Positions 20,644 through 40,273 are shown, counted from the stretch's first letter. The stretch: 64,000 nucleotides of DNA from Candidatus Hadarchaeota archaeon (GCA_964384105.1 CAYLJV010000002.1:64001-128000), one strand, 5' to 3'. Made by a program: numbers and translations. The notes: generated by a model from the sequence alone, not told the origin.

Positions 20644-21342
20644 ATGGGTATCCGAGGAAAAAAGTACTGGATAATTGCGATAATTGTATCATTAGTCGTA
20701 GGACTGGGAACTTACTCTATAGTCAACTCCCTCTCAGAGGAAGAATCGAGGGAACTATTCATAAAAGAGGGTGGAAAACAGGTCGAGCTGGAGAACGTAA
20801 AATACTCGGTCGAAAGAGTCGAGAACTTAATCAAAGAGCACGCCTACCGTTTGGAACTTCGAATTAAGAAGGAGTTCGAGGATATAGAAAATCTTCCCAA
20901 AACTCTGAACTTGAAAATATCGGAAAGCGTCTATCTAAGATCTCTCGAGAATTCGATACTCTACAGAGAAACCAACGAAAGAACAGTAGGTTCCCTGGAC
21001 TGGCTCTTCTCTCCGATCGCATCTGGAGCGGTTTTCGCCGCACTAGCAGCAATTAGACTTCGAAAGCCCGAGACACGAGGACAAGCCGCAACCCTACTTC
21101 TCGAAAATGGATGGGAACAGGCGAGAGTCCGGGACGTGGAATTGTTAGCAGCAATAATCAAGATGAAAAGATTCACTATCCCTGAACTTATGAGTCGTGT
21201 CGGAACTTCGAAGAGCACAACCTATCGGACCGTCAGAGAACTTGCCGAACTGGGTTTAATCGAAGAGACTGAGGAAGAGAAAACTCCTGACAGCGTAAGA
21301 GGAAAACCAAGTAAGGTTTACAGATACACAGAAACCGGTTAA
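20644..21342 (+). CDS. Membrane-anchored winged-HTH transcriptional regulator
   Basis: TM, soluble loop, TM, then FTIPELMSRVGTSKSTTYRTVRELAELGLIEE...RGKPSKVY. Confidence 0.8.
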   Translation: MGIRGKKYWIIAIIVSLVVGLGTYSIVNSLSEEESRELFIKEGGKQVELENVKYSVERVENLIKEHAYRLELRIKKEFEDIENLPKTLNLKISESVYLRSLENSILYRETNERTVGSLDWLFSPIASGAVFAALAAIRLRKPETRGQAATLLLENGWEQARVRDVELLAAIIKMKRFTIPELMSRVGTSKSTTYRTVRELAELGLIEETEEEKTPDSVRGKPSKVYRYTETG

Positions 21343-21676: not shown

Positions 21677-22309
21677 ATGAAATTAAAAGATATTTTCCGG
21701 AAAAAATCCTTCAAATACCCGCTTATTGCGATTATAATACTCTTTTTCCTCTCAATAGTTCTCATAAACGCTAATTTTAACGCCACTAAGAGTAAAACAT
21801 CTATAAACACATCTAAAGAATCCTTTTCGGTTTCTGAATCTGAAATTGAAACGGATCTTAGAGAAAGAGTATTTCTTTATGTAGAAGACCAGTCACTCAA
21901 CGGAACTCTTGATAAAAATCTCCAAGAGTTTTTAAAAGAAACCAGTTCAGATGTCAAATCTTTCTTGAATTTAAAGGAGAGTTTTGGTGGTCCGACTATC
22001 GCTGTTAAAATACTTCGTGAGAAAATTGACTACATCCCACTTTATTCGATGGGTGAAATTGATGTCCTGTTCTTCTATTCCTCATCCGGTGAAACTTCTT
22101 ACTTCGAAAAATTCGTAAGAGAAGAATTTGGCGGGCCTAATGTGACAGTTATTTTTGAATCTTCTGACGGACCCCAAAAAATAGTTAGGGGAAAATTGAC
22201 TCTCAGGGACATCAGTTACGGGATCACGACACCAGGAGGATACAAAAACCGATTGGCGGAACAGATAGCGAGGAGAGTTTCAAACGAAATTAAAGAAATT
22301 TCTTTCTAG
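21677..22309 (+). CDS. Hypothetical membrane-anchored protein
   Basis: Basic N-terminus, one TM, soluble domain; palindrome tttgtttc-N6-gaaacaaa upstream (21608-21629). Confidence 0.7.
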   Translation: MKLKDIFRKKSFKYPLIAIIILFFLSIVLINANFNATKSKTSINTSKESFSVSESEIETDLRERVFLYVEDQSLNGTLDKNLQEFLKETSSDVKSFLNLKESFGGPTIAVKILREKIDYIPLYSMGEIDVLFFYSSSGETSYFEKFVREEFGGPNVTVIFESSDGPQKIVRGKLTLRDISYGITTPGGYKNRLAEQIARRVSNEIKEISF

Positions 22310-22414: not shown

Positions 22415-23236
22415 TCAACGAGATTCCCGGTAACCTTCCACACTCCCTTGCTTTATCTCCCTCGCGAATTCCCCAATATCAGACAAAGTACTCTCCGGAT
22501 CTTCCAAATTCCGTCCGTATATCCTGCCAAGAGCACTCCCAGTTATAACTCCATCAGCCCCAGCCGAAACAATTGCTCTGGCGTGCTCCCTTCGAGATAT
22601 TCCAAAGCCAGCCATCATTGGTATACCTGTACGGTCTCTCACCCTCTCGATCAGTTCAATTGTAGAACTCGGAAGAGAGTCCCTGGCCCCTGTAACTCCC
22701 TCAACATTTATAATGTAAATAAAGCCTGAGGCAGAATCAAGAATTTTATCCAACCGATTCTCCGAGGTATTCGGCGTTACCTGCAAGATAACATCTATAT
22801 CGTTCTTCCCCCCAGCATCCAACACTTCTTGGATTTCTTCAACCGGTAAATTGGGAATTATCACACCCTGAGCTCCGGCCTCACTTATATCCTCAAAAAA
22901 TTTCTCTAAACCATAGACATACGGTATGTTATAGTAAGTAGTGACTATCAATGGAACCTTCAAACCTTCAGCCCTCAACTTCCTTATTCCTTCAATGCAC
23001 CTCGCTGGCGTAATCCCATTCTTTAAGGCTCTCTCGCAAGCCGACTGAAAGACCGGTCCATCGGCTGTAGGATCGGAGAAAGGAATTCCAAATTCGATGA
23101 AGTCCGCCCCGTTTTCAACTAATTCCTTCACTTGTTTCAAAGAAAACTGTTCGCTTGGGTCTCCATAGTATATATGGGGCATATAGGCCCCTTCTCTCTT
23201 TTCTTTCAGATCCTCAAACCTTTCATCTATTCTCAT
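22415..23236 (-). CDS. trpA: Tryptophan synthase alpha chain
   Basis: IEFGIPFSDPTADGP, GVTGAR, GFGIS, ADGVITGSA. Confidence 0.95.
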   Translation of the reverse strand: MRIDERFEDLKEKREGAYMPHIYYGDPSEQFSLKQVKELVENGADFIEFGIPFSDPTADGPVFQSACERALKNGITPARCIEGIRKLRAEGLKVPLIVTTYYNIPYVYGLEKFFEDISEAGAQGVIIPNLPVEEIQEVLDAGGKNDIDVILQVTPNTSENRLDKILDSASGFIYIINVEGVTGARDSLPSSTIELIERVRDRTGIPMMAGFGISRREHARAIVSAGADGVITGSALGRIYGRNLEDPESTLSDIGEFAREIKQGSVEGYRESR

Positions 23237-24428
23237 TTTTTACATACTCCAAAATCGTTTCCAAATCTTTCTCCCCTCTACCCGAGAAATTAAGCACGAC
23301 TATCTCATCCCTCTCGAACTCCTCCTGGTGGTTTATCATGTAGGCTACAGCATGAGCGGTTTCCAGAGCCGGAATCAGACCTTCAGACTTCGCCATGACT
23401 TTCACGGCTTCGAAGACCTCTTTATCGAACGCATAGCAGGCATTTATCCTGTCGATATCGTAGAGATGGGATAGCTCCGGACCCCTCGCCGGGTAGTTCA
23501 GGCCCGCACTTCTTGTCTTTGAGGGTTTTATCTGCCCGTTCTCATCTTGCAGAGTGTACATCAGAGCCCCGTGGATAACGCCCGGACTTCCCAGCTGGAA
23601 AGCCGCAGCACTGTTATCTGCGTCCAGGCTCTCCCCTCCACCCTCGACAAAGTAGAGTCTAACATCCTCGTCCACAAAAGGCCTAAAGGCACCCAGAGCA
23701 TTACTTCCACCACTACCACAGGCAACTATCGCATCGGGAAGCGTTCCCTCCCTCTCGAGAATCTGACTCTTTATCTCTTTCCCAATCACACTCTGGAAAC
23801 TGGCCACTATCTCCGGAAAAGGATGTGGCCCAACCGTCGAACCCATCAGATAATGGGTCGTGTTGGAACACGAGGCCCACTCTCTCAAAGTATCCGAAAC
23901 AGCGTCCTTCAAAACACCTCCACCAATATTTACGGGTCGTATATCAGCCCCAAGCAACTTCATTCTATCGACGTTCGAAGGTTGCCTCTTAATATCGTGA
24001 ACTCCCATGAAAACTTCGACTTCCAGATTGCAGACATTGCCTGCCATTGTACTCGCAACACCGTGCATCCCCGCCGCGGTCTCCGTTATCAATCGGGACT
24101 TACCCATCTCCTTGGCCAAAAGCGCCTGTCCCAGAGTGTTATTGAGTTTATGAGATCCACCGTACGTGATATCCTCACGTTTCAGATAGACCTTACATCC
24201 AATCTTCTCGCTGAATTTTTCGGCATGGTAAAGAGGTGTGGGTCTCCCACCAAAGTTCTTTAGTAAGTTCTGGTACTCCTTCTGAAATTTTGGGTCCGGA
24301 TAAAGTCTCTCGAACTTCTCTTCGAGTTCGAGGAGAGCCGGCATCAGCATTTCATTTACGTATCTTCCACCGAACCTGCCGAAACGACCCTTTTCATCAA
24401 CCGATCTTTCTAAGAGATTTTCTACCAC
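23223..24428 (-). CDS. trpB: Tryptophan synthase beta chain (TrpB1-type, divergent)
   Basis: GRFGGRY, GRPTPL, LKRED..GGSHKLNN, GPHPFP, ALETAHA, NFSGRGEKD. Confidence 0.93.
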   Translation of the reverse strand: MVENLLERSVDEKGRFGRFGGRYVNEMLMPALLELEEKFERLYPDPKFQKEYQNLLKNFGGRPTPLYHAEKFSEKIGCKVYLKREDITYGGSHKLNNTLGQALLAKEMGKSRLITETAAGMHGVASTMAGNVCNLEVEVFMGVHDIKRQPSNVDRMKLLGADIRPVNIGGGVLKDAVSDTLREWASCSNTTHYLMGSTVGPHPFPEIVASFQSVIGKEIKSQILEREGTLPDAIVACGSGGSNALGAFRPFVDEDVRLYFVEGGGESLDADNSAAAFQLGSPGVIHGALMYTLQDENGQIKPSKTRSAGLNYPARGPELSHLYDIDRINACYAFDKEVFEAVKVMAKSEGLIPALETAHAVAYMINHQEEFERDEIVVLNFSGRGEKDLETILEYVKNENR

Positions 24429-24430
24429 AA

Positions 24431-25081
24431 TTACCCACCTACCTCTCTTACAAATTCTTCCATAAGCTTATGATCTTTCTTACCAGGTTCAGATTCAACA
24501 CCACTAGAGACATCGACGGCGAAAGGTCGGACCTTTTCGATAGCCAAGCGGACGTTTGAAGGATTGAGACCACCTGCTAAGATTATCGGAACTTTCAGGT
24601 TATCCCTTATCATAGAACTAACTTCCCAATCATGTGTCTCTCCAGTTCCACCACCAGAACCCAGTTTGGTATCTAATAACAACCTGTCCGAAACAGCGGC
24701 AATATCTCTAGCCTCCGAGACCACCTCCGCGGACTCCTCAAAATCTTTAGATACATGAAAGACACCAATAACTTTGATTTTCTCGCGAATCTCCTCCATC
24801 TCTCGACCGTACATTCTATTATGTACCTGCAAAAAGTCTGGATTCAATTCATTCACCAGATCCTCTGCTTCATTTACATTTTCAGGAGTCGTAACTACTA
24901 CTCTCTCTACACCCTCCGGTACACTGTCAAACACCCTAGCCGCCTGTTCAACAGTAATATTCCTAGGAGTAGGGACGTTAACATTAACGACAACTCCTAC
25001 CATGTCCACCCCGATATCACAGGCCACCTTGGCATCCTCGGAGTTTGTAAATCCACATATCTTAGTTTTAACCACTTCCAT
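24431..25081 (-). CDS. trpF: Phosphoribosylanthranilate isomerase
   Basis: KICG, LQVH, LLLD, GGTG..HDW, LAGGL...NV, VDVSSGVE. Confidence 0.95.
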   Translation of the reverse strand: MEVVKTKICGFTNSEDAKVACDIGVDMVGVVVNVNVPTPRNITVEQAARVFDSVPEGVERVVVTTPENVNEAEDLVNELNPDFLQVHNRMYGREMEEIREKIKVIGVFHVSKDFEESAEVVSEARDIAAVSDRLLLDTKLGSGGGTGETHDWEVSSMIRDNLKVPIILAGGLNPSNVRLAIEKVRPFAVDVSSGVESEPGKKDHKLMEEFVREVGG

Positions 25082-25847
25082 CACCAAAAACAAGTTCACG
25101 AACCTTCCCCTCAACGTTATTGGACTTCATTATAGAAGTACCTACGAGAACAGCATCAGCCCCTGCCTCGAGGATCTTTTCAACATCCGCTCTATTCTTT
25201 ATACCACTCTCACTCAGAAGAACAGTATCCTCGGGAATATACCTGGAAATCCTCTCTGTTCTAGACAAGTCGATCTCCATAGTTCTCAGGTCCCTATTGT
25301 TTATGCCTATAATATCCGCATCAACAGAAGTTGCGAATTTTGCCTGATCTTTATCCCTGACTTCTACCAACGTCTCTAACTCAAGCTCCTTAGATTTATT
25401 AACAAATTTAGGAAGGGTGTCTCCCAAAACCTCAGTTATAAGTAAAACTGCATCGGCACCGTACTTCTTAGCTTGATAAAGCTGATATTCGTCTACAATG
25501 AAATCCTTTCGGAGGATTGGTACTTCAACTGTGTCATGAACCGTTCTCAGATATTCCAATTTACCCCTAAACCGATTGGATTCAGTTAATACCGAAATTC
25601 CTACAACTCCACCGTTGACCAAAGATATGGCAAGTCCATCAACCTCAAAATCGGACCTTATCAAACCCTCAGAAGGCGATGCGCGTTTAAGTTCCCCGAT
25701 CACCGGAGCATTTGACTCTTTCTTTATAGATTCGAGTAAACTTCTTTTCTCAAAATTTTCAAGATCCGGAAAGTCGATAGGATTAACTTTCTTCTCTCTC
25801 TCCACATCAGTACGGACATCTTCAACTATATCTTCCAGAATACTCAA
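25068..25847 (-). CDS. trpC: Indole-3-glycerol phosphate synthase
   Basis: ELKRASPSEG, SVLTE, LRKDFI, GINNRDL, SESGI. Confidence 0.96.
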   Translation of the reverse strand: MSILEDIVEDVRTDVEREKKVNPIDFPDLENFEKRSLLESIKKESNAPVIGELKRASPSEGLIRSDFEVDGLAISLVNGGVVGISVLTESNRFRGKLEYLRTVHDTVEVPILRKDFIVDEYQLYQAKKYGADAVLLITEVLGDTLPKFVNKSKELELETLVEVRDKDQAKFATSVDADIIGINNRDLRTMEIDLSRTERISRYIPEDTVLLSESGIKNRADVEKILEAGADAVLVGTSIMKSNNVEGKVRELVFGDGSG

Positions 25848-26899
25848 ATTGATTCCTCCAATTTTTCGATTTTAGTCATACTCCCACCACTGGCCCTCAC
25901 CAGTTGATCAAGTTTTTCATAAGCTCTACCGGAATCAACTGCTTCTCTAGCAATTTCTAAACCTTCTTCCAAATCCGTCGATTCGTCCCCAACAAAAATA
26001 GCGGCGGCGGCGTTCAACAGGGTTATATCTCTACAAGACCCACTCTCCCCATGCAATATCCTCAGCAGTATTCGAGCATTTTCCTTGGCATCCCCACCTG
26101 AAAGATCTTCTGGCTTTGCTTTGTGTATTCCCAAATCTCCAGGTTGAATACTGTAAGTCCTTATTTCATCGTCGATGAGCTCGGAAACTCGGGTCCTACC
26201 CAAAGTCGATATTTCATCAAGTCCATCCAACCCATTGAAAACCATAGCTCTCTCTGTCTCCAGTTTCTTCAATACCTCGGCTATCTTCTCTGTCAGAGAA
26301 TGATCGTATATGCCAACGGCTTGTGCTTTGGCTCCCGCCGGATTTGTCAGAGGACCCAAAAGATTGAAGACTGTCCTCAGCTTGATCTCTTTCCTCGGTC
26401 CAATGGCGTGCTTCATGGCTTTATGAAAAATTGGGGCGAACATAAAACCAATACCTATCCGCTCTATTGATTTTTCAACTTTGTCAGGGGCAAGCTCGAT
26501 ATTCACACCCAAAGCCTCGAGTACATCCGCGCTCCCAGATTTACTGGTGACAGAGCGATTGCCATGCTTCGCTATCGGGACGCCTGCACCTGCTGCCACG
26601 AACATCGCCGAAGTGCTTATATTAAACGTATTCAATCTGTCGCCCCCCGTTCCACAAGTGTCAACTAAAAACCCATCTACGTCGGGATGTATTCTAGTAG
26701 CAAACTTTTGCATCGCCCTGGCAAAGGATGCCATTTCAGTGGGTGTTTCACCCTTCATTCTCAAAGCGGCTAGAAGTGCCCCTATCTGAGCGGGAGTCGC
26801 TTCACCTGACATTATTTTTTCCATGACTCTCTCAGATTCATCTTCGGCAAGATCATCTCTCTCTATCAACTTGTTTATAGCCGTCTGTATAGTGCTCAA
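25844..26899 (-). CDS. trpD: Anthranilate phosphoribosyltransferase
   Basis: DTCGTGGD, NIST, KHGNRSVTSKSGSADVLE, RTVFNLLGPLTNP. Confidence 0.97.
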   Translation of the reverse strand: MSTIQTAINKLIERDDLAEDESERVMEKIMSGEATPAQIGALLAALRMKGETPTEMASFARAMQKFATRIHPDVDGFLVDTCGTGGDRLNTFNISTSAMFVAAGAGVPIAKHGNRSVTSKSGSADVLEALGVNIELAPDKVEKSIERIGIGFMFAPIFHKAMKHAIGPRKEIKLRTVFNLLGPLTNPAGAKAQAVGIYDHSLTEKIAEVLKKLETERAMVFNGLDGLDEISTLGRTRVSELIDDEIRTYSIQPGDLGIHKAKPEDLSGGDAKENARILLRILHGESGSCRDITLLNAAAAIFVGDESTDLEEGLEIAREAVDSGRAYEKLDQLVRASGGSMTKIEKLEESI

Positions 26900-27474
26900 T
26901 CTCCTCCAACCTCCAGAAAATTCTTTATAATTTTTTTTCCTTCCGAGGTCAAAATCGACTCGGGATGGAACTGTAAACCAAATAATGGGTAGTCTCTATG
27001 CTGTATCCCCATTATCTCCCCGCTGTCATCCAAGGTCCTAGAAGTAACCCGAAAACAGTCGGGAAGAGAAGAGCTATCGACTACAAGAGAATGATATCTA
27101 GTTGCTTCAAGAGGATTTGAAATATTTCTATAGAGAAAGCTTCCGTCATGCTCTATCATAGAGGTTTTACCATGCATTATCTCTCTGGCGTACGAAATCC
27201 TAGCGTCGAAGGCGTATGCTATGACCTGATGACCGAGGCAAACACCCAAAATAGGTATCTTAAGGCCAAGACTTCTCACTACTTCTAGAGAAATTCCTGA
27301 ATCCTCTGGCCTTCCCGGACCTGGAGAAATCACTATCCTGTCAGGATCTTCTTTTTCGATATCTTCTAAATTAGAATCATTTCGGAATACTACCGGATCT
27401 GCTCCTAACTCACCGACATATTGAACGAGATTATAGACAAAGGAATCAATATTATCAATTACAGCTACTTTCAA
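26896..27474 (-). CDS. trpG: Anthranilate synthase component II
   Basis: IDNIDSFVYNL, SPGPG, LGVCLGHQ, RYHSL, QFHPES. Confidence 0.96.
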   Translation of the reverse strand: MKVAVIDNIDSFVYNLVQYVGELGADPVVFRNDSNLEDIEKEDPDRIVISPGPGRPEDSGISLEVVRSLGLKIPILGVCLGHQVIAYAFDARISYAREIMHGKTSMIEHDGSFLYRNISNPLEATRYHSLVVDSSSLPDCFRVTSRTLDDSGEIMGIQHRDYPLFGLQFHPESILTSEGKKIIKNFLEVGGD

Positions 27475-28961
27475 CCGATACACCCTCCTGCCCTTAGCAA
27501 AGATCTCGCTTTACTCTCCGTTTCATGGTACTCTTTCTCGGGAACAGAATCTGCAACTATCCCTGCTCCAACTTGAATATGCGCTTCCTCACCGTCCGAA
27601 GTAAGAGTTCGAATAGCAATTGCAAAATCAGCATCACCGGTATAACTGAAGGAACCGACAGCACCTGAATAAATTCCCCTACAGGTTGGCTCAAGCTCTT
27701 GAATTATCTCCATCGCCCTAACCTTCGGGGCACCTGTTACAGTTCCTGCAGGAAAAACAGCACGAAAGGCATCAAATGCATCACACGTTTCCTTGATATC
27801 ACCGGTAACTGTGCTTACTATATGCTGGACATCTCCATATTTCTCTATCTCCATGAATTCGGGGGTCTCAACCGAGCCAAATTTAGAGACCTTGCCGATA
27901 TCGTTACGCCCTAAATCCACTAGCATAACATGCTCGGCTCTCTCCTTCTCGTCGGCCAGAAGTTCCGTTTCCATCGCCTTATCCGACTCATAGTCCTTTC
28001 CTCTAGACCTAGTTCCAGCGATTGGTCGGGTCATAACCTTCCCATCGTTTACTCTAACCAAAGACTCCGGACTTGACCCTACAACCTTCTGTTCCTGAAA
28101 ATCTAGGAAATACATATACGGCGAAGGATTGATCTCCCTGAGCTTTAAATAGAAATCACCCAAGGGCGGAGATGGGTCTAAGTCAATCCTTCTTGAGAGT
28201 ACGGTCTGAATAACTTCACCCTCCCGAATATAGTCCTTTATCTTGCCAACACCTTCTTCAAAACCCTCTTTTTCTAGATTAGATTCCAAATGAACAGTTC
28301 TCTCAGACTCAGTCGGATAATTCATTTTCTCCGAAAAAATTTCTTCAAGTCTTTCCTTAGCCTCCTGATGAAACTCCTCAAATTCTCTTTCCCTCGTTAG
28401 AAGGAGCAGGGAAGCATAATATGTCACATTCTTGAGGTGGTCAAAAACGATTACGATTGAAGGCAACATGAACTCCATAGTGGGGTGATCCAAATCATTC
28501 GCTTCGCTGGTTTCTATCCCAAAAAGAGAAGAAACATAATCGTAACTTATGTATCCAGTCACTCCGAGAATGTACCGGGGAACATTGAGACCCACAAAAT
28601 GCAACTCATCAAAAAGCATGGATTTTCTTAAGATTTCCAAACTGTCCGTCTCTTCATTATCCTCGCTTAAGGACAAATTTGCCTCTTTCACTAATTCTGG
28701 AGAACCGCTAATCTCTCTTTTCCCATTTCTGATCTTTAGATTCAGTAAAGGAAGAGCACCAATAACCGAATATCTAGAGCTATTTTTTGGACCGGTCAAA
28801 GACTCCAAGAGGTATGAAGGTTCATACTTCTCCCTTAACCCGAGATATGCCTTCGCAGGATCTTTGCAACCTTCTTCAGTTGCCACTAACGGAATTAAAC
28901 ACGGACGTCCCATCTCCTCAGCCAATGTTTTTGCATCTTCTTTACAGGGCATAATTTCCAT
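27471..28961 (-). CDS. trpE: Anthranilate synthase component I
   Basis: LLES, NPSPYM, PIAGT, EHVMLVDLGRND, TGAPKVRAM, GAGIVADS. Confidence 0.96.
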   Translation of the reverse strand: MEIMPCKEDAKTLAEEMGRPCLIPLVATEEGCKDPAKAYLGLREKYEPSYLLESLTGPKNSSRYSVIGALPLLNLKIRNGKREISGSPELVKEANLSLSEDNEETDSLEILRKSMLFDELHFVGLNVPRYILGVTGYISYDYVSSLFGIETSEANDLDHPTMEFMLPSIVIVFDHLKNVTYYASLLLLTREREFEEFHQEAKERLEEIFSEKMNYPTESERTVHLESNLEKEGFEEGVGKIKDYIREGEVIQTVLSRRIDLDPSPPLGDFYLKLREINPSPYMYFLDFQEQKVVGSSPESLVRVNDGKVMTRPIAGTRSRGKDYESDKAMETELLADEKERAEHVMLVDLGRNDIGKVSKFGSVETPEFMEIEKYGDVQHIVSTVTGDIKETCDAFDAFRAVFPAGTVTGAPKVRAMEIIQELEPTCRGIYSGAVGSFSYTGDADFAIAIRTLTSDGEEAHIQVGAGIVADSVPEKEYHETESKARSLLRAGGCIG

Positions 28962-28998
28962 TAAGAAAACCTCAAAACTGTTAGTTTGATAAAAGCTT

Positions 28999-29034
28999 TG
29001 TACTATTTAAAACCTTGCAGTACAATAATGTACA
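28999..29034. promoter_or_regulatory. TRP boxes (TrpY operator) flanking the trpE TATA box
   Basis: TGTACT 28999-29004; AGTACA-ataa-TGTACA 29019-29034; minus-strand TTTTAAATA at ~29004-29012. Confidence 0.8.
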
Positions 29035-29050
29035 AAAAACTGGAGGAGAT

Positions 29051-29347
29051 TTAAATATCTAAATCCAATTTTTGGAATAACTCTTCGGGAGAAACACTTC
29101 GAACAAATATCTTTTTATTCCTAGATTTTTGTCCAGAAACTATCTCTATATCCCTGCCTATGATCTCTTGGAATTTTTCCAATAATTCTCTATTTGCTTT
29201 GCCTCGTCTAGGCTCAGAGACAACATAAACTTGCAATTGATTTCTCCAAGAGTCTACTTCACCAACTTCAAAACTTGTCGAACCGGTTGTAACCCTTAAA
29301 TCCAGTAGAATACCGTTATCTCTCTTTTCGAAAAAACTCCCAGACAT
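29051..29347 (-). CDS. DUF167/UPF0235 (YggU-like) protein
   Basis: V...P..GKANREL, IVSGQKSRNK. Confidence 0.85.
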   Translation of the reverse strand: MSGSFFEKRDNGILLDLRVTTGSTSFEVGEVDSWRNQLQVYVVSEPRRGKANRELLEKFQEIIGRDIEIVSGQKSRNKKIFVRSVSPEELFQKLDLDI

Positions 29348-29359
29348 TTAGACACAAAC

Positions 29360-30148
29360 TCAGTATACAATAACACTCTCAACGCTAGGCAATTCTCTCA
29401 ACTCCTCGATTATCGCGCCACTGACGGGTTCTCCCGTTATTATCGTTAACTTAGGCTGAGCGGCAAAATAAGGGTCATCCGCAACAGACTGTCTAATGCT
29501 CAGTTTATGGTTTGAGATAACATTAGTAACTTCACTTATTATACCAGATCTAGAAGCATCAGAGGGTATTATCTCAATAACTCCCAAGTTAAGTTGTTGA
29601 GCTACGGCTTTCAAGTAAGGAATTGGTCTCAAGTTAGAAAACAGCTCCCTTAAATCATCATCTTTGACTATAGTTTCAGCAGTTGCATCAACGGCTCTTC
29701 GGTCTACTCCAGCTTCTTTACCAATCTGAACAGCGGGAACTCGAATATCCCCACAAACAACGTCTCCATTTTCTTTGACTCTAAGACCGTATTTGTAAAG
29801 TACTCTAGCAACCTTGAGCTGTGCAGGATTTCCAGAAAATATTTTCTGTATTTTCCCCCACATACTTGGCTCACCCACCTTTTCCCTCTCCTCTGCAACA
29901 CTGCGAGAGATTACCAATCTCATAACATCTTCAGCGAAGTCTGGATCAAGTCCCTTTTCTTCCGCCAGTTCCCTCGTCTTCTCTATCACTTTCATTTCTC
30001 GTTTCCTGTCCCTAACCTTTTTACCGGATTTCTTCTTCGATTCGAGTATCTTTTCTACCACGGCCATCCTTCTCGACAGGACATCTAGCAATTCCTCGTT
30101 AATTTTGTCTATTTCAGCGCGTAGATCTCCTAAATCTCCATTATTCAT
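29360..30148 (-). CDS. AroQ chorismate mutase fused to TrpY-type (HTH-ACT) regulator
   Basis: N-terminal LRAEIDKIN..LL..LSRR...K...VRD..RE; C-terminal MWGKI...GLRV...CGDI...GVDRRAV...SIRQ...DP...LTIIT. Confidence 0.88.
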   Translation of the reverse strand: MNNGDLGDLRAEIDKINEELLDVLSRRMAVVEKILESKKKSGKKVRDRKREMKVIEKTRELAEEKGLDPDFAEDVMRLVISRSVAEEREKVGEPSMWGKIQKIFSGNPAQLKVARVLYKYGLRVKENGDVVCGDIRVPAVQIGKEAGVDRRAVDATAETIVKDDDLRELFSNLRPIPYLKAVAQQLNLGVIEIIPSDASRSGIISEVTNVISNHKLSIRQSVADDPYFAAQPKLTIITGEPVSGAIIEELRELPSVESVIVY

Positions 30149-31010
30149 TTTCTACTCTCGCTCCCATACTAGATGGTCTAGTTTTGATGACCTCTCCATT
30201 TTCGAGATCCCAACCATCCATTATTTTCTCTGTATTTTTAGCTCTGGTTATGGCTACGGTAGCCGGGCCAGTCCCGGTTAGGCCCGCGCCTTCCGCCCCA
30301 TTAGACAAGGCCTCCAAAGCCGGCTCTGGATCGTAACCAAGAACCGAAGAATAGAGAAGCCCGTTAACCGTCTGAGCACCATAAATATTTCCCTCGATAG
30401 CCTTTTCTTGAGCAACCTCAACCAAATCGCTAATGAGTTTAGTTCGTTGAACATCCACTTCTTTTGTGTAAGATCGCTCAGGAGGTAGGTATATAAGTAC
30501 AATTAGATCAGATGGCACCTCAAATCTTCTTAAAATTTCGTTCTTCTTGTTATCCGTAACAACTCCACCACCCAAATATGAGGCCGAAGCATCATCAAAA
30601 GCTCCCGTGATGGTAGTGCCGGCCTCGAAAGCTGCTTCTATTCCAACAGTAACCGCATCTAATGGATCAGGTTCTACACCTAAAGCGGAATAAGTCGCTA
30701 GAACGGTGGCATTTGCAGCAGCGCTACTACTTGAGAGACCTACCGCTATAGGAAGATCCGTCGTGGTTTCCACCCTTCCTCCATACTCATCCAATAAATC
30801 CAGCTTCTCAAGAACTTTCTTCACGGATATTTCGATCAACTCGGAATCCTCATCAGTGTCACCAACTTTACCCGAAATCTCTGAAGAATCCCGAATCAAC
30901 TCTACGGTTGACTGAACTCTAAGGTCAATTGCAAAAGCAGAACCTACCCCCGTAGAAATAGCATTTATTACAGTCGCAGAACCACATGCCGAGGCAATTC
31001 CTCTCTCCAT
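30141..31010 (-). CDS. aroK: Archaeal (GHMP) shikimate kinase
   Basis: ATVINAISTGVGSA, GLSSSSAAANA, TITGAFDDA, GLTGTGP. Confidence 0.93.
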   Translation of the reverse strand: MERGIASACGSATVINAISTGVGSAFAIDLRVQSTVELIRDSSEISGKVGDTDEDSELIEISVKKVLEKLDLLDEYGGRVETTTDLPIAVGLSSSSAAANATVLATYSALGVEPDPLDAVTVGIEAAFEAGTTITGAFDDASASYLGGGVVTDNKKNEILRRFEVPSDLIVLIYLPPERSYTKEVDVQRTKLISDLVEVAQEKAIEGNIYGAQTVNGLLYSSVLGYDPEPALEALSNGAEGAGLTGTGPATVAITRAKNTEKIMDGWDLENGEVIKTRPSSMGARVENE

Positions 31011-31017
31011 ACCCCCC

Positions 31018-32124
31018 TCAACTCCTGAATCCAATATTATCAGGTTTTATCTTTCCTGACCTCAACATCATATCGGCCAGAACTATAGCAAGCATAGATT
31101 CTGCTACGGGAACCATCCTCGGACATATATTTGGATCATGACGGCCCTTCAATTCAATCTTCGTTTCCTCCATAGTCTCCAGGTCGACGGTTTTCTGAAG
31201 TTTAGAAATCGAAGACGGCGGCTTAACCGCTATCCTAACCACTATCTGCGCACCGGTGCTAATCCCTCCCAGAACTCCGCCAGCTCTATTTGTCTCTGGT
31301 TTGATCTCACCGTCCACTACCTTGAAACTATCGTTTACTTCCGACCCACGAGCTCTAGCTGATTCGAATCCTAAACCGAATTCTACTCCTTTAACGGCAC
31401 CCACCGACATCAGGGCATGAGCAATCTTAGCTTCAAGTTTATCAAATATCGGTTCACCCAGTCCAGAGGGTACGTTTTTAGCAACTATCTCTACGATCCC
31501 TCCAGTGCTGTCACCATCCTCCTTAGCCTCTAAAACAGCAGATTCCATTTCTTCTGCGACCTCTGGATCCGCACATCTCATCGGATTTTTACCCACATTG
31601 CGTTCTATTTCTTCAAAACTTACTTCCTTATCTAAACCAATTCCAGCGGCCTCTATCGTGTGAGCCAAAACTTTCACGTTACGAAGTGAAATCAATTTTT
31701 TTGCTATAGCTCCAGCTGCGACCCTTCCTACTGTTTCCCGTCCCGAAGCTCTAGAACCTCCTCGATAATCCACGTGGCTATATTTTAACCTATACGTCAA
31801 ATCGGCATGTCCAGGTCGTGGTTTAAACATCATATCTTCATAAGGTTTTGAATCCACATCTTTGTTCCAAACTAACATCTGAATCGGCGTGCCAATCGTC
31901 TTATCCTCAAAAACTCCCGAGAGTATTTCAACTTCGTCCCTTTCACTTCTTTTAGTCTCCACTTTGGATTTCCCAGGACGGCGACGGTCAAGGTCAGCCT
32001 GAATATCTGATTTCCTTAATTCAAGACCCGCTGGAACCCCATCGACGACGACCCCAACTGCTTTGCCATGGCTCTCTCCAAAGGTCGTAATTCGAAATAT
32101 TTTACCAAAACTATTTCCACCCAT
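31018..32124 (-). CDS. aroC: Chorismate synthase
   Basis: TFGESHG, RPGHAD, RASGRET, GGISTG, GRHDP. Confidence 0.97.
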
Positions 32125-32471
32125 TACAAACGCCCGACCATTCATAAATTGGTCTATAAATCCTTTAAAACCAGCTAGTTATAAAAATACCTGAAAAAGT
32201 AGAATTTTAAAATTTTTATTACAGAAATCTAGAAAAATAAAGATATTTTAAGTGCATTCACATCGTTTTTTGGCTAACAATAAAATCGACTTAATGTCCT
32301 TAAAAATTGAGATAAATCTTTAAAAACGGAAATGATCATTTAAAAAAACCAAAAAAATAGAAGCCACTAATATCATTAATAAATCTAGCAGTAGAAAAAA
32401 CCTATGAATAGACATATCAAGAGTTTAATTCCAGAAAGATAATAGAAAAATGGCGTGAGTGCAATAGTTGA

Positions 32472-38594: not shown

Positions 38595-39455
38595 GTGAAG
38601 ATAGCAATCTTGGGGGCTGGATCTATGGGTAAGTGGTTTGCGAGATTTGCTAAAGAGAGAAGTTGGGAGATATCCATCTATGATATTAATAAGAAAAAAG
38701 GAAGAAAAATCTCAAAAGAACTAGGACTGGAATTTTCACCAAATAAAGAAGATGCTGTAGAAAATGCAGACGTAATTTTGATTTCTGTACCCATAACGGA
38801 AACTCCCAAACTGATAAAAGAGGCTTCAGAATCCGTAAAAGAAGGGTCTCTGCTAATAGACATTGCCTCGGTAAAGGAAAGAGCAGTAGAATCCATGAAA
38901 GAAGTGAAAAAAAGAATGGAATTAGTTTCAATACACCCTCTTTTCGGTCCAGGGGCCAAGAATCTGGATAATAAAAATATAATATCTATTCCTGTAGAAA
39001 AAGGAGAAAAATATCAACGATTAAAGAGCGAGTTTTCAGAACTTGGTGCAAAAATAGTAGAAATGGAAGCAGAAAAACATGACAAGCTTATGGCAGTTAT
39101 ACAATCTCTAACTCACTTCTCCCTCCTGACCCATTTTTCGGCATTCACCTCCATGGACTATAGTGACGAAGCAGAAAAATTTGAAACTCCCATATTCAAG
39201 AATTTATTCGATCTAACCAAAGCGTTCATGTACGAAAATCCTAAACTCTGTGCGGATATTCAGAGAGAAAACAGATACTCGGAGATAGCTAGGAATTCTA
39301 TAATAGAGGCTTCTAGAAACCTGAATGAGACGTTAGAATCAGGAGATATCAAAAAGATAGAAGAAATTTTCGACGAAGCCAGGGAAAAGATTGGCCCAGA
39401 AAAAATAGAGGCAGCTTATAAAAAAATTTACGCAAAGAAGGGAAATGAAAAATGA
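38595..39455 (+). CDS. tyrA: Prephenate dehydrogenase
   Basis: GAGSMG, DIASVK, HPLFGP, HDKLMA..Q.LTH; GTG start just after aroE. Confidence 0.93.
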   Translation: MKIAILGAGSMGKWFARFAKERSWEISIYDINKKKGRKISKELGLEFSPNKEDAVENADVILISVPITETPKLIKEASESVKEGSLLIDIASVKERAVESMKEVKKRMELVSIHPLFGPGAKNLDNKNIISIPVEKGEKYQRLKSEFSELGAKIVEMEAEKHDKLMAVIQSLTHFSLLTHFSAFTSMDYSDEAEKFETPIFKNLFDLTKAFMYENPKLCADIQRENRYSEIARNSIIEASRNLNETLESGDIKKIEEIFDEAREKIGPEKIEAAYKKIYAKKGNEK

Positions 39456-40273
39456 AAGTGGGAATATTAGGACCTCGTGGAACTTACAGCGAAATAGCAG
39501 CTAAAAATTACTTTAAAGAAGAAATAGAGATAGTGACATACTCCTTAATAACAGAAGTAGCAGAGAGTGTTGAAAAAGGAGAAATACCCGCAGGTGTAGT
39601 ACCAGTAGAAAGCCTCAGAGAAGGCTCCGTAGGGGAAACTTTAGATGCGCTAGCGTGGTTGGACGTGAAAATAAAGGCCGAAATAGTGATAGAAGTAACC
39701 CATAATCTATTGGGAACTAAAGGTTCTAAAATAGAAGACATAAGACAAGTTCTATCTCACCCCCAAGCACTGGCTCAATGTAGACAGTTCCTTCGAAAGA
39801 AACTACCCGAAGCTGAGTTAATAAGCGTAAAAAGTACAGCAAAAGCGGCGAAGCAAGTCAGCAAGGTAGAAAAGCCTTTCATGGCAGCCATAGGATCCCA
39901 AGATTTAGCAGATTTATACGATCTAGAAATTATCGAAGAAAACATTCAAATAGGCAAGAAAGATGAAACGAGATTTTTAATCTTGGGAAAAGAAGATAGC
40001 GAACCTACTGGAAAAGACAAAACTTCGATAGTTTTCTATACTCGAAAGGACGAACCAGGAATACTATATAAAATACTAAAAGAATTCGGAGAAAGAAAAA
40101 TAAACCTGACAAGAGTGGAATCAAGACCATCGAAAGAGGCTTTAGGAGATTATCTATTTTTTGTCGATTTTGAAGGCCACAGAAAGGATAATAAGATAAA
40201 ACAAGCACTTGAAAAAATCAAACCAAAGGTTGCAACTCTCAAGATTATAGGCTCCTATCCTAAGATATTTTGA
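39452..40273 (+). CDS. pheA: Prephenate dehydratase
   Basis: LGPRGTYS, SHPQALAQC, TRF, ACT domain with NLTRVESRP. Confidence 0.95.
   Translation: MKVGILGPRGTYSEIAAKNYFKEEIEIVTYSLITEVAESVEKGEIPAGVVPVESLREGSVGETLDALAWLDVKIKAEIVIEVTHNLLGTKGSKIEDIRQVLSHPQALAQCRQFLRKKLPEAELISVKSTAKAAKQVSKVEKPFMAAIGSQDLADLYDLEIIEENIQIGKKDETRFLILGKEDSEPTGKDKTSIVFYTRKDEPGILYKILKEFGERKINLTRVESRPSKEALGDYLFFVDFEGHRKDNKIKQALEKIKPKVATLKIIGSYPKIF

Follow-up and report, generated by a model that had tools for sequence, protein, structure and literature searches.

In the window, which is the whole stretch of 64,000 nucleotides analysed here from Candidatus Hadarchaeota archaeon (GCA_964384105.1 CAYLJV010000002.1:64001-128000), a single open reading frame (ORF) of the minus strand encodes a chorismate mutase (CM) of the AroQ type followed in frame by a TrpY-type regulator. 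The gene, here designated CM::TrpY, lies inside a cluster of aro genes and shares 8 nt with the end of the shikimate kinase gene, whose stop it overlaps with its start (ATGAATAA). The genes and protein features of the locus are the following:

31018-32145, minus strand: chorismate synthase gene, upstream of the kinase gene
30141-31034, minus strand: shikimate kinase gene, archaeal GHMP-type, overlapping the fusion gene
29360..30148, minus strand: CM::TrpY fusion gene, an ORF of 262 aa, AroQ CM and then TrpY in frame
29888..30130, minus strand: AroQ chorismate mutase domain, residues 7-87, from profile matches and the alignment of 41 orthologs
29861..29887, minus strand: linker or junction, residues 88-96 (EKVGEPSM), including the Met96 ATG at 29863-29861
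29372..29860, minus strand: complete TrpY-family regulator, residues 97-259, from the NF053754 match
29663-29734, minus strand: helix-turn-helix, residues ~139-162, with the invariant D149, R150 and R151
29366-29584, minus strand: ACT-like ligand domain, residues ~189-261, from the AlphaFold2 model and Foldseek
29051..29347, minus strand: DUF167/YggU gene, downstream of the fusion gene and ahead of the trpE operator
22415..28961, minus strand: trpEGDCFBA operon, the presumed target, with trpE at 27471-28961 and then trpG, trpD, trpC, trpF, trpB and trpA

Domain architecture of the fusion protein

Both halves of the protein were recognized by family profiles. Pfam CM_2 matched residues 9-87 (E 4e-22, 78.7 bits against a cut-off of 27), the NCBIfam equivalog-domain profile TIGR01791 (CM_archaeal) scored 69.6 bits against a cut-off of 66.95, and the NCBIfam profile NF053754 (TrpY_fam) matched residues 97-259 over profile positions 1-163 of 163, with 206.2 bits against a cut-off of 180. 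The first-pass annotation of this DNA had described an AroQ CM at residues ~1-90, a TrpY of full length from MWGKIQ onward, a helix-turn-helix (HTH) at GVDRRAV and a C-terminal ACT domain, and all four elements were recovered: the two CM profiles lie above their cut-offs, MWGKIQ begins at residue 96 and opens a TrpY sequence that is complete by profile and gap-free by alignment, GVDRRAV is found in the TrpY half, and the C-terminus takes the ACT topology in the structure model, the Pfam ACT profile scoring 17.6 bits there, below threshold. As to the domain architecture that it had proposed to check, the CM_2 and TrpY-family profiles both lie above cut-off on one ORF. This ORF is a genuine in-frame fusion of chorismate mutase to a complete TrpY regulator, and CM::TrpY is a new architecture assembled from known parts, in which catalytic and DNA-binding-type domains are found within one polypeptide, as in trigger enzymes.

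The chorismate mutase half

Chorismate mutase sends chorismate towards phenylalanine and tyrosine, in competition with anthranilate synthase. In the host genome (G000, 90% complete), the single CM_2 match above cut-off was the fusion gene, and no CM of the CM_1/AroH type was found in this genome. Likewise, the fused copy was the only CM_2 match above cut-off in 41/41 genomes, with an additional sub-threshold match of 19.3 bits in one (G007) and the same copy on two contigs in another (G015); in the latter, the fusion gene and the trpE beside it each occur in two copies of equal score (C6:47567-48334 and C18:6257-7024), probably as an assembly or binning duplicate. The enzymes that follow CM are encoded separately, prephenate dehydratase at 39458-39997 and prephenate dehydrogenase at 38637-39059 of the window.

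Residues R10, R27, K38, D47, R50 and E51 were invariant in the alignment of 41 orthologs. Residues 8-89 of the solved chain 1ecm_A align with residues 7-88 of the query, an offset of +1 that assumes no internal gaps, and at this offset the invariant residues match R11', R28, K39, D48 and E52, active-site residues of E. coli AroQ. The position equivalent to Gln88 is occupied by E in the window protein and by E or Q in the orthologs read. Judged by these residues, the CM half looks functional, and catalysis itself is predicted.

The TrpY half

Aligned by hhalign with a profile of 20 stand-alone TrpYs, the TrpY half covered 168 columns with no gaps (E 3.5e-79), and the fusion was the only TrpY_fam match in G000. 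Residues D149, R150 and R151 of the GVDRR HTH, together with many residues of the ACT region, were invariant in the 41 orthologs; a search for solved structures related to TrpY by sequence returned none at E up to 0.01. The TrpY half looks functional by its sequence, with DNA binding as a predicted activity. Very few archaeal transcription regulators are understood, TrpY being among the best-studied repressors. According to one source (PMC6737238), TrpY is the trp repressor in Methanothermobacter thermautotrophicus, where TRP boxes exist, and the TrpY homolog of Thermococcus kodakarensis does not regulate trp; because of the latter, membership of the family is by itself no proof of role.

Conservation of the fusion and database status

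The fused frame runs without a stop in 41/41 relatives of the order (5 families, 17 genera), which are kin and not independent, so that fewer independent observations underlie this and the other conservation counts than their numbers suggest. At the level of the phylum (66 genomes), a match was obtained in 61, of which 60 were full-length and one (G043) ended at a contig edge with the junction spanned; four genomes of the same order (56-89% complete) and G041, the sole genome of another order among the 66, gave no fusion match. Across the 41 orthologs, which share 41-68% identity with the window protein, residues 8-262 displayed zero insertion columns and one 1-residue gap, and the length of the linker was constant.

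Contigs assembled from other sequencing runs contained no insertion or deletion across the CM-TrpY junction. One of them (X2 record 2) matches 29689-30238 with 0 differences, though it stems from the study to which the likely source belongs, and another (X4 record 5), from a different study, covers 29608-29925 with 8 substitutions; window stretches that have no contig cover carry no meaning in this comparison. A stop or a frameshift between the domains, which the first-pass annotation had named as the observation that would speak against it, was seen neither in the 41 relatives nor in the contigs that cover the junction. A contig of 154 nt from an RNA library covers 29858-30008, and is of a kind that cannot show transcription, strand or ends.

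Homologs with a named source are labelled Hadarchaeia or Hadesarchaea, and the architecture is visible in databases through the names of three JGI entries. The present finding corrects annotation: the NCBI and nr names listed give "chorismate mutase" alone, and some of the gene calls are limited to the regulator half. No description of a CM::TrpY fusion was found in the literature on TrpY/COG2150, archaeal Trp repression, Hadesarchaea chorismate or trigger enzymes, and a survey of archaeal fusions does not include it in the portions searched of its main text and seven supplements (PMC11237513). A search among proteins longer than 294 aa with a TrpY domain found no other TrpY fusion, which is weak evidence, and 0/80 stand-alone trpY loci of Methanosarcinales were fused to CM.

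Gene context

In the aro neighbourhood, the shikimate kinase gene lies directly ahead of CM::TrpY in 41/41 loci, and the chorismate synthase gene ahead of the kinase in 40/40 of those loci that reach that far. In the window, the 326 nt that precede the aro cluster (32146-32471) are free of GTAC. Given this and the position within the aro cluster, the fusion protein is probably made together with the enzymes of the common pathway and is not autoregulated.

On its downstream side, the gene is followed in the window by the DUF167/YggU gene and, after an intergenic region of 89 nt, by trpE. Among the 41 loci, a DUF167/YggU gene at this spot was seen in G000 only, and it looks like a recent insertion. 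In 7/41 loci, belonging to three or more families, trpE lies within 1.5 kb downstream on the same strand with the operator between both genes; in the remaining genomes it is kilobases off or on another contig. Beyond the end of the trp operon, the window contains a 232-aa ORF on the plus strand (20644-21342) with a C-terminal HTH of the TrmB/IclR type, another candidate regulator, and a 210-aa ORF (21677-22309) between this and the operon.

The trpE operator and the predicted regulon

The promoter of trpE displays the following elements:

28999..29034, minus strand: trpE operator/promoter, three GTACA boxes flanking BRE/TATA
29034-29029, minus strand: box 1, TGTACA
29024-29019, minus strand: box 2, TGTACT
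29012-29004, minus strand: TATA box, TTTTAAATA
29004-28999, minus strand: box 3, AGTACA

A Shine-Dalgarno (SD) sequence of trpE, GAGGT, follows at 28973-28969. Successive boxes lie 10 and 20 nt from each other, and hence straddle BRE/TATA as repressor sites do. The TRP-box consensus of M. thermautotrophicus is TGTACA, and the boxes at the trpE of the window are of this type. TRP boxes had been placed within 28990-29040 by the earlier reading, and the TGTACA-type boxes in this interval are real, conserved across the order and also present at trpB2.

For the comparison among relatives, trpE upstream regions were taken from 30 loci, 28 of which were placed by an anchor search. The GTACA/TATA/GTACA layout was found, free of gaps, in 27/30 loci (27/28 of those anchored), with the consensus TGTACAaaaaTGTACactAAAGtcTTAAATAGTACAa. 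In L060, the remaining one of the 28, the anchor had fallen on an unrelated site; its genome carries several trpE-like genes. In the two loci that gave no anchor (L071 and L075), the upstream stretches end in an apparent box 1, and the starts assigned to these genes are probably too far upstream.

A matrix of 37 nt, derived from the 27 trpE sites, was then scanned on both strands of the 1.6 Mb of G000, where only two matches exceeded 12 bits, namely the trpE promoter (48.9 bits) and the trpB2 promoter (20.8 bits). The trpB2 site (C1:455240-455276 of G000, 441-477 of L076), TGTACActttcGTACTccaaagccTTAAATA, is devoid of the third box, and the gene that begins 60 nt downstream is TrpB-like (TIGR01415 trpB_rel, 668.9 bits against 518.85). 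Among the trpB2 loci of the relatives, 12/30 had a site scoring more than 10 bits, located at -56 to -72 relative to the start; they comprise every one of the 9 loci from the window's family other than G000 itself, plus G028, G034 and G017; by matrix score, the site was absent or different in the other 18/30. In many of the relatives devoid of the GTACA-type site, with L087-L095, L098, L100, L103 and L105 as the loci concerned, the TATA box of trpB2 follows another conserved stretch, roughly cattttgt.cc.tgatgaac, perhaps an operator that has diverged or a site for a different regulator. No further match to the matrix was found in the 41 fusion loci.

Clustering of GTAC alone yielded 13 clusters (at least 3 within 50 nt) in G000, which is about chance level, and the case for the operator therefore rests on position, conservation and the matrix scan. 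In the stand-alone trpY genes of Methanosarcinales, TGTACA occurs at most 140 nt upstream of 13/80, several of the 13 being close kin, where its density in these loci, 0.18 per kb, would predict ~2; this independent check supports the link between TrpY and such boxes.

In M. thermautotrophicus, TrpY controls trpEGCFBAD, trpY and trpB2. The regulon predicted here from the operator sequences, trpEGDCFBA plus trpB2, matches the TrpY regulon of Methanothermobacter, and such a prediction becomes available for organisms that cannot be grown. A regulator other than CM::TrpY could bind the boxes.

A separate observation concerns a 5-kb contig of a brine metagenome (X5 record 8, depth 299), which matches the window at 28996-29034 (39 nt) and at 29507-29547 (41 nt). 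The two pieces are 880 nt apart in the contig and 472 in the window, and the contig probably derives from an abundant relative in which another gene fills the spacer.

Structure models

The AlphaFold2 (AF2) model of the monomer reached a pLDDT of 85.3 and a pTM of 0.52, the latter leaving the orientation of the domains uncertain. It contains three CM helices, a 4-residue break at 92-95, a helical HTH region (helices 139-146 and 150-162, the second being the recognition helix) and an ACT-like unit at 189-261 with the topology beta-alpha-beta-beta-alpha-beta; the linker block has a pLDDT of ~67-70. Foldseek matches were ACT domains (3k5p, 1psd, 3ibw) and, at low TM-score, Lrp/AsnC-type regulators.

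A two-copy model obtained an ipSAE of 0.60 (0.60, 0.61 and 0.60 in the runs) against 0.00 for the best control, a mark that was reached by 20/30 proteins solved as same-chain pairs and by 1/23 solved as single chains, and that the CM half may pass by its likeness to solved AroQ dimers. At least 89% of the contacts agreed among the dimer runs, and the partner pLDDT was at least 78. The modeled interface comprises CM residues 5-82 as well as TrpY residues 116-223.

A candidate enzyme-repressor

The best reading of CM::TrpY, and in our judgment a probable one, is that of a bifunctional enzyme-repressor, one polypeptide of 262 aa with two jobs. As an enzyme, it would be the cell's only chorismate mutase, feeding the stand-alone prephenate dehydratase and dehydrogenase. 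As a TrpY-type repressor, it would bind as a homodimer to the three GTACA boxes that bracket the BRE/TATA of trpEGDCFBA, and to the related site at trpB2, when tryptophan occupies the C-terminal ACT-like domain, and transcription initiation would be blocked by analogy with the TrpY of Methanothermobacter. For CM::TrpY, it is DNA binding, the response to tryptophan and repression that we infer.

The enzyme-repressor need not be more than the sum of its parts. Both halves might work independently in a passive fusion, with co-expression or an extra dimerisation clamp, provided by the CM dimer, as the only gain; this is a sub-case of the preferred reading from which coupling is absent, and we give it slightly less than an even chance. 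The low pLDDT of the linker and the pTM of the monomer agree with such an arrangement, and no sign of contacts between the CM and ACT domains was seen. Against it stands the alignment of residues 8-262, almost free of gaps at the identities given above, because a linker of fixed length is unusual for a passive tether and makes a free one less expected.

Coupling of the two activities of the enzyme-repressor, by tryptophan binding or by occupancy of the CM site, is a more tentative proposal, for which the invariant linker length in the 41 orthologs and a dimer model that involves both halves are indirect hints. In a rigid dimer, tryptophan at the ACT-like domain might close the trp promoters and at the same time raise CM activity, and/or chorismate or prephenate might tune operator binding, a scheme that we consider possible and somewhat doubtful. 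If true, a single protein would divide chorismate between the Trp and the Phe/Tyr branches by expression and by catalysis, in an order of uncultured subsurface and brine archaea in which TrpY has been joined to the enzyme that competes with anthranilate synthase. With one soluble protein of 30 kDa as the full-length product, a predicted operator of 37 bp and three candidate ligands, the system is compact and testable, and could reveal cross-talk, if any, between an enzyme and the repressor of the branch it competes with.

The proposed internal start at Met96

The first-pass annotation had also proposed that free TrpY may be made from an internal start. The ATG at 29863-29861 and the SD-like GGGTGA at 29876-29871, 7 nt upstream, are as it described them, but the proposed function fared less well, the codon being unconserved and the SD-like match within chance. 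A stronger version holds that two products are made, the fusion and a free 167-aa TrpY starting at Met96, with the free form as the real repressor, and this we regard as unlikely, as we do a free TrpY isoform in this one organism.

Several observations do point towards such a start. Met96 aligns with Met1 of the stand-alone TrpYs, which begin with MW, and the fusion has therefore kept the ancestral TrpY initiator. The GGTGA within the SD-like element pairs with the 3' end of the 16S rRNA (...GATCACCTCCT), and at such spacing GGTGA stands ahead of 5.4% of the first and 1.0% of the internal ATGs. Moreover, database calls of 167 aa begin exactly at Met96 in four relatives named MSBL1 (66-79% identical).

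Nevertheless, in the 41 orthologs the codon at position 96 is ATG in 21, GTG in 1, GTC in 6, GTT in 1, TGG in 6, TTC in 3, ATA in 1, GGC in 1 and CTG in 1; 19/41 are counted as non-start codons, including the GTC of G002, a member of the same genus. SD-like matches of at least 5 nt are no commoner where a start codon exists (2/22 start-capable vs 3/19 non-start orthologs), with AGGTGA before GTC and GGAGGTG before GTC as examples of the latter, and in G000 an anti-SD match of at least 5 nt precedes 7.7% of 6188 internal in-frame ATGs as compared to 22.3% of the first ATGs of 1194 long ORFs. From the codons involved, the SD-like matches look like by-products of the Gly, Glu and Val codons of the linker. 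Furthermore, no TATA-like element was seen in the CM coding region when read by eye, and the search found no separate short relative consisting of CM only.

Short database calls that cover the TrpY half only (P0088-P0090, P0097 and P0100-P0102, of 167 and 152 aa) carry the name "amino acid-binding protein" or are hypothetical. One of these, P0101 (152 aa), is identical to part of the open 290-codon fused frame of L025 and is therefore a truncated call, which speaks against a free product; the short TrpY-only entries in general are probably truncated too. A contig scan with P0088, a 167-aa MSBL1 call, found no relative.

Comparison with known systems

The TrpY of M. thermautotrophicus was reportedly the subject of a study by Xie and Reeve in 2005. 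CM::TrpY resembles it in belonging to the NF053754 family with an HTH and ACT-like architecture of full length, and in having TGTACA-type boxes over the trpE promoter and trpB2 as a second target. Unlike it, CM::TrpY sits behind a chorismate mutase and is encoded in the aro cluster. The divergent trpY-trpE arrangement with autoregulation was not found for this gene, which shares its strand with trpE in the 7/41 loci where trpE is near; no boxes precede its own operon in G000, and autoregulation is not apparent.

Yeast Aro7 is a chorismate mutase activated by Trp and inhibited by Tyr. The logic proposed for CM::TrpY is alike, with Trp pushing chorismate into the Phe/Tyr branch; in Aro7, however, Trp is sensed in the CM fold, and in CM::TrpY the hypothetical effect would pass through a separate ACT-like domain. 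PutA, BirA and NadR are trigger enzymes or enzyme-repressors, single polypeptides that catalyse a step of a pathway and, by binding DNA, control related genes, and CM::TrpY is comparable to them in uniting catalysis and predicted DNA binding in one polypeptide, with different folds and pathways. To our knowledge, no case in archaea has been described in which an enzyme at a branch point of amino-acid synthesis is fused to the repressor of the branch it competes with.

In E. coli, the P-protein consists of an AroQ CM, a prephenate dehydratase and an ACT domain, and the T-protein of an AroQ CM and a prephenate dehydrogenase. CM::TrpY shares with both the AroQ CM at the N-terminus of a fusion, and with the P-protein a C-terminal ACT domain, which in the P-protein senses an aromatic amino acid. 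Conversely, the partner of the CM in CM::TrpY is a DNA-binding-type regulator and not the next enzyme, and its expected ligand, Trp, belongs to the competing branch. By extension of the P-protein, the TrpY half might have ceased to bind DNA and serve as an ACT-type allosteric module for aromatic control of CM, as the ACT fold of the C-terminus, the common use of ACT domains to regulate fused enzymes and the T. kodakarensis homolog that is not a trp regulator (PMC6737238) would allow, but we deem this very improbable, given an HTH as conserved as in the stand-alone TrpYs and order-wide operators of the TRP-box type that need a binder, the fusion being the sole TrpY-family gene of G000.

A further aromatic-amino-acid regulator, Tar (TK0271) of T. 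kodakarensis, is described in the same source as an activator that binds TGGACA-N8-TGTCCA upstream of BRE/TATA (PMC6737238). Tar is likewise encoded inside an aro operon; it differs from CM::TrpY in being unfused and an activator, whereas the boxes attributed to CM::TrpY straddle the TATA box, the geometry of a repressor.
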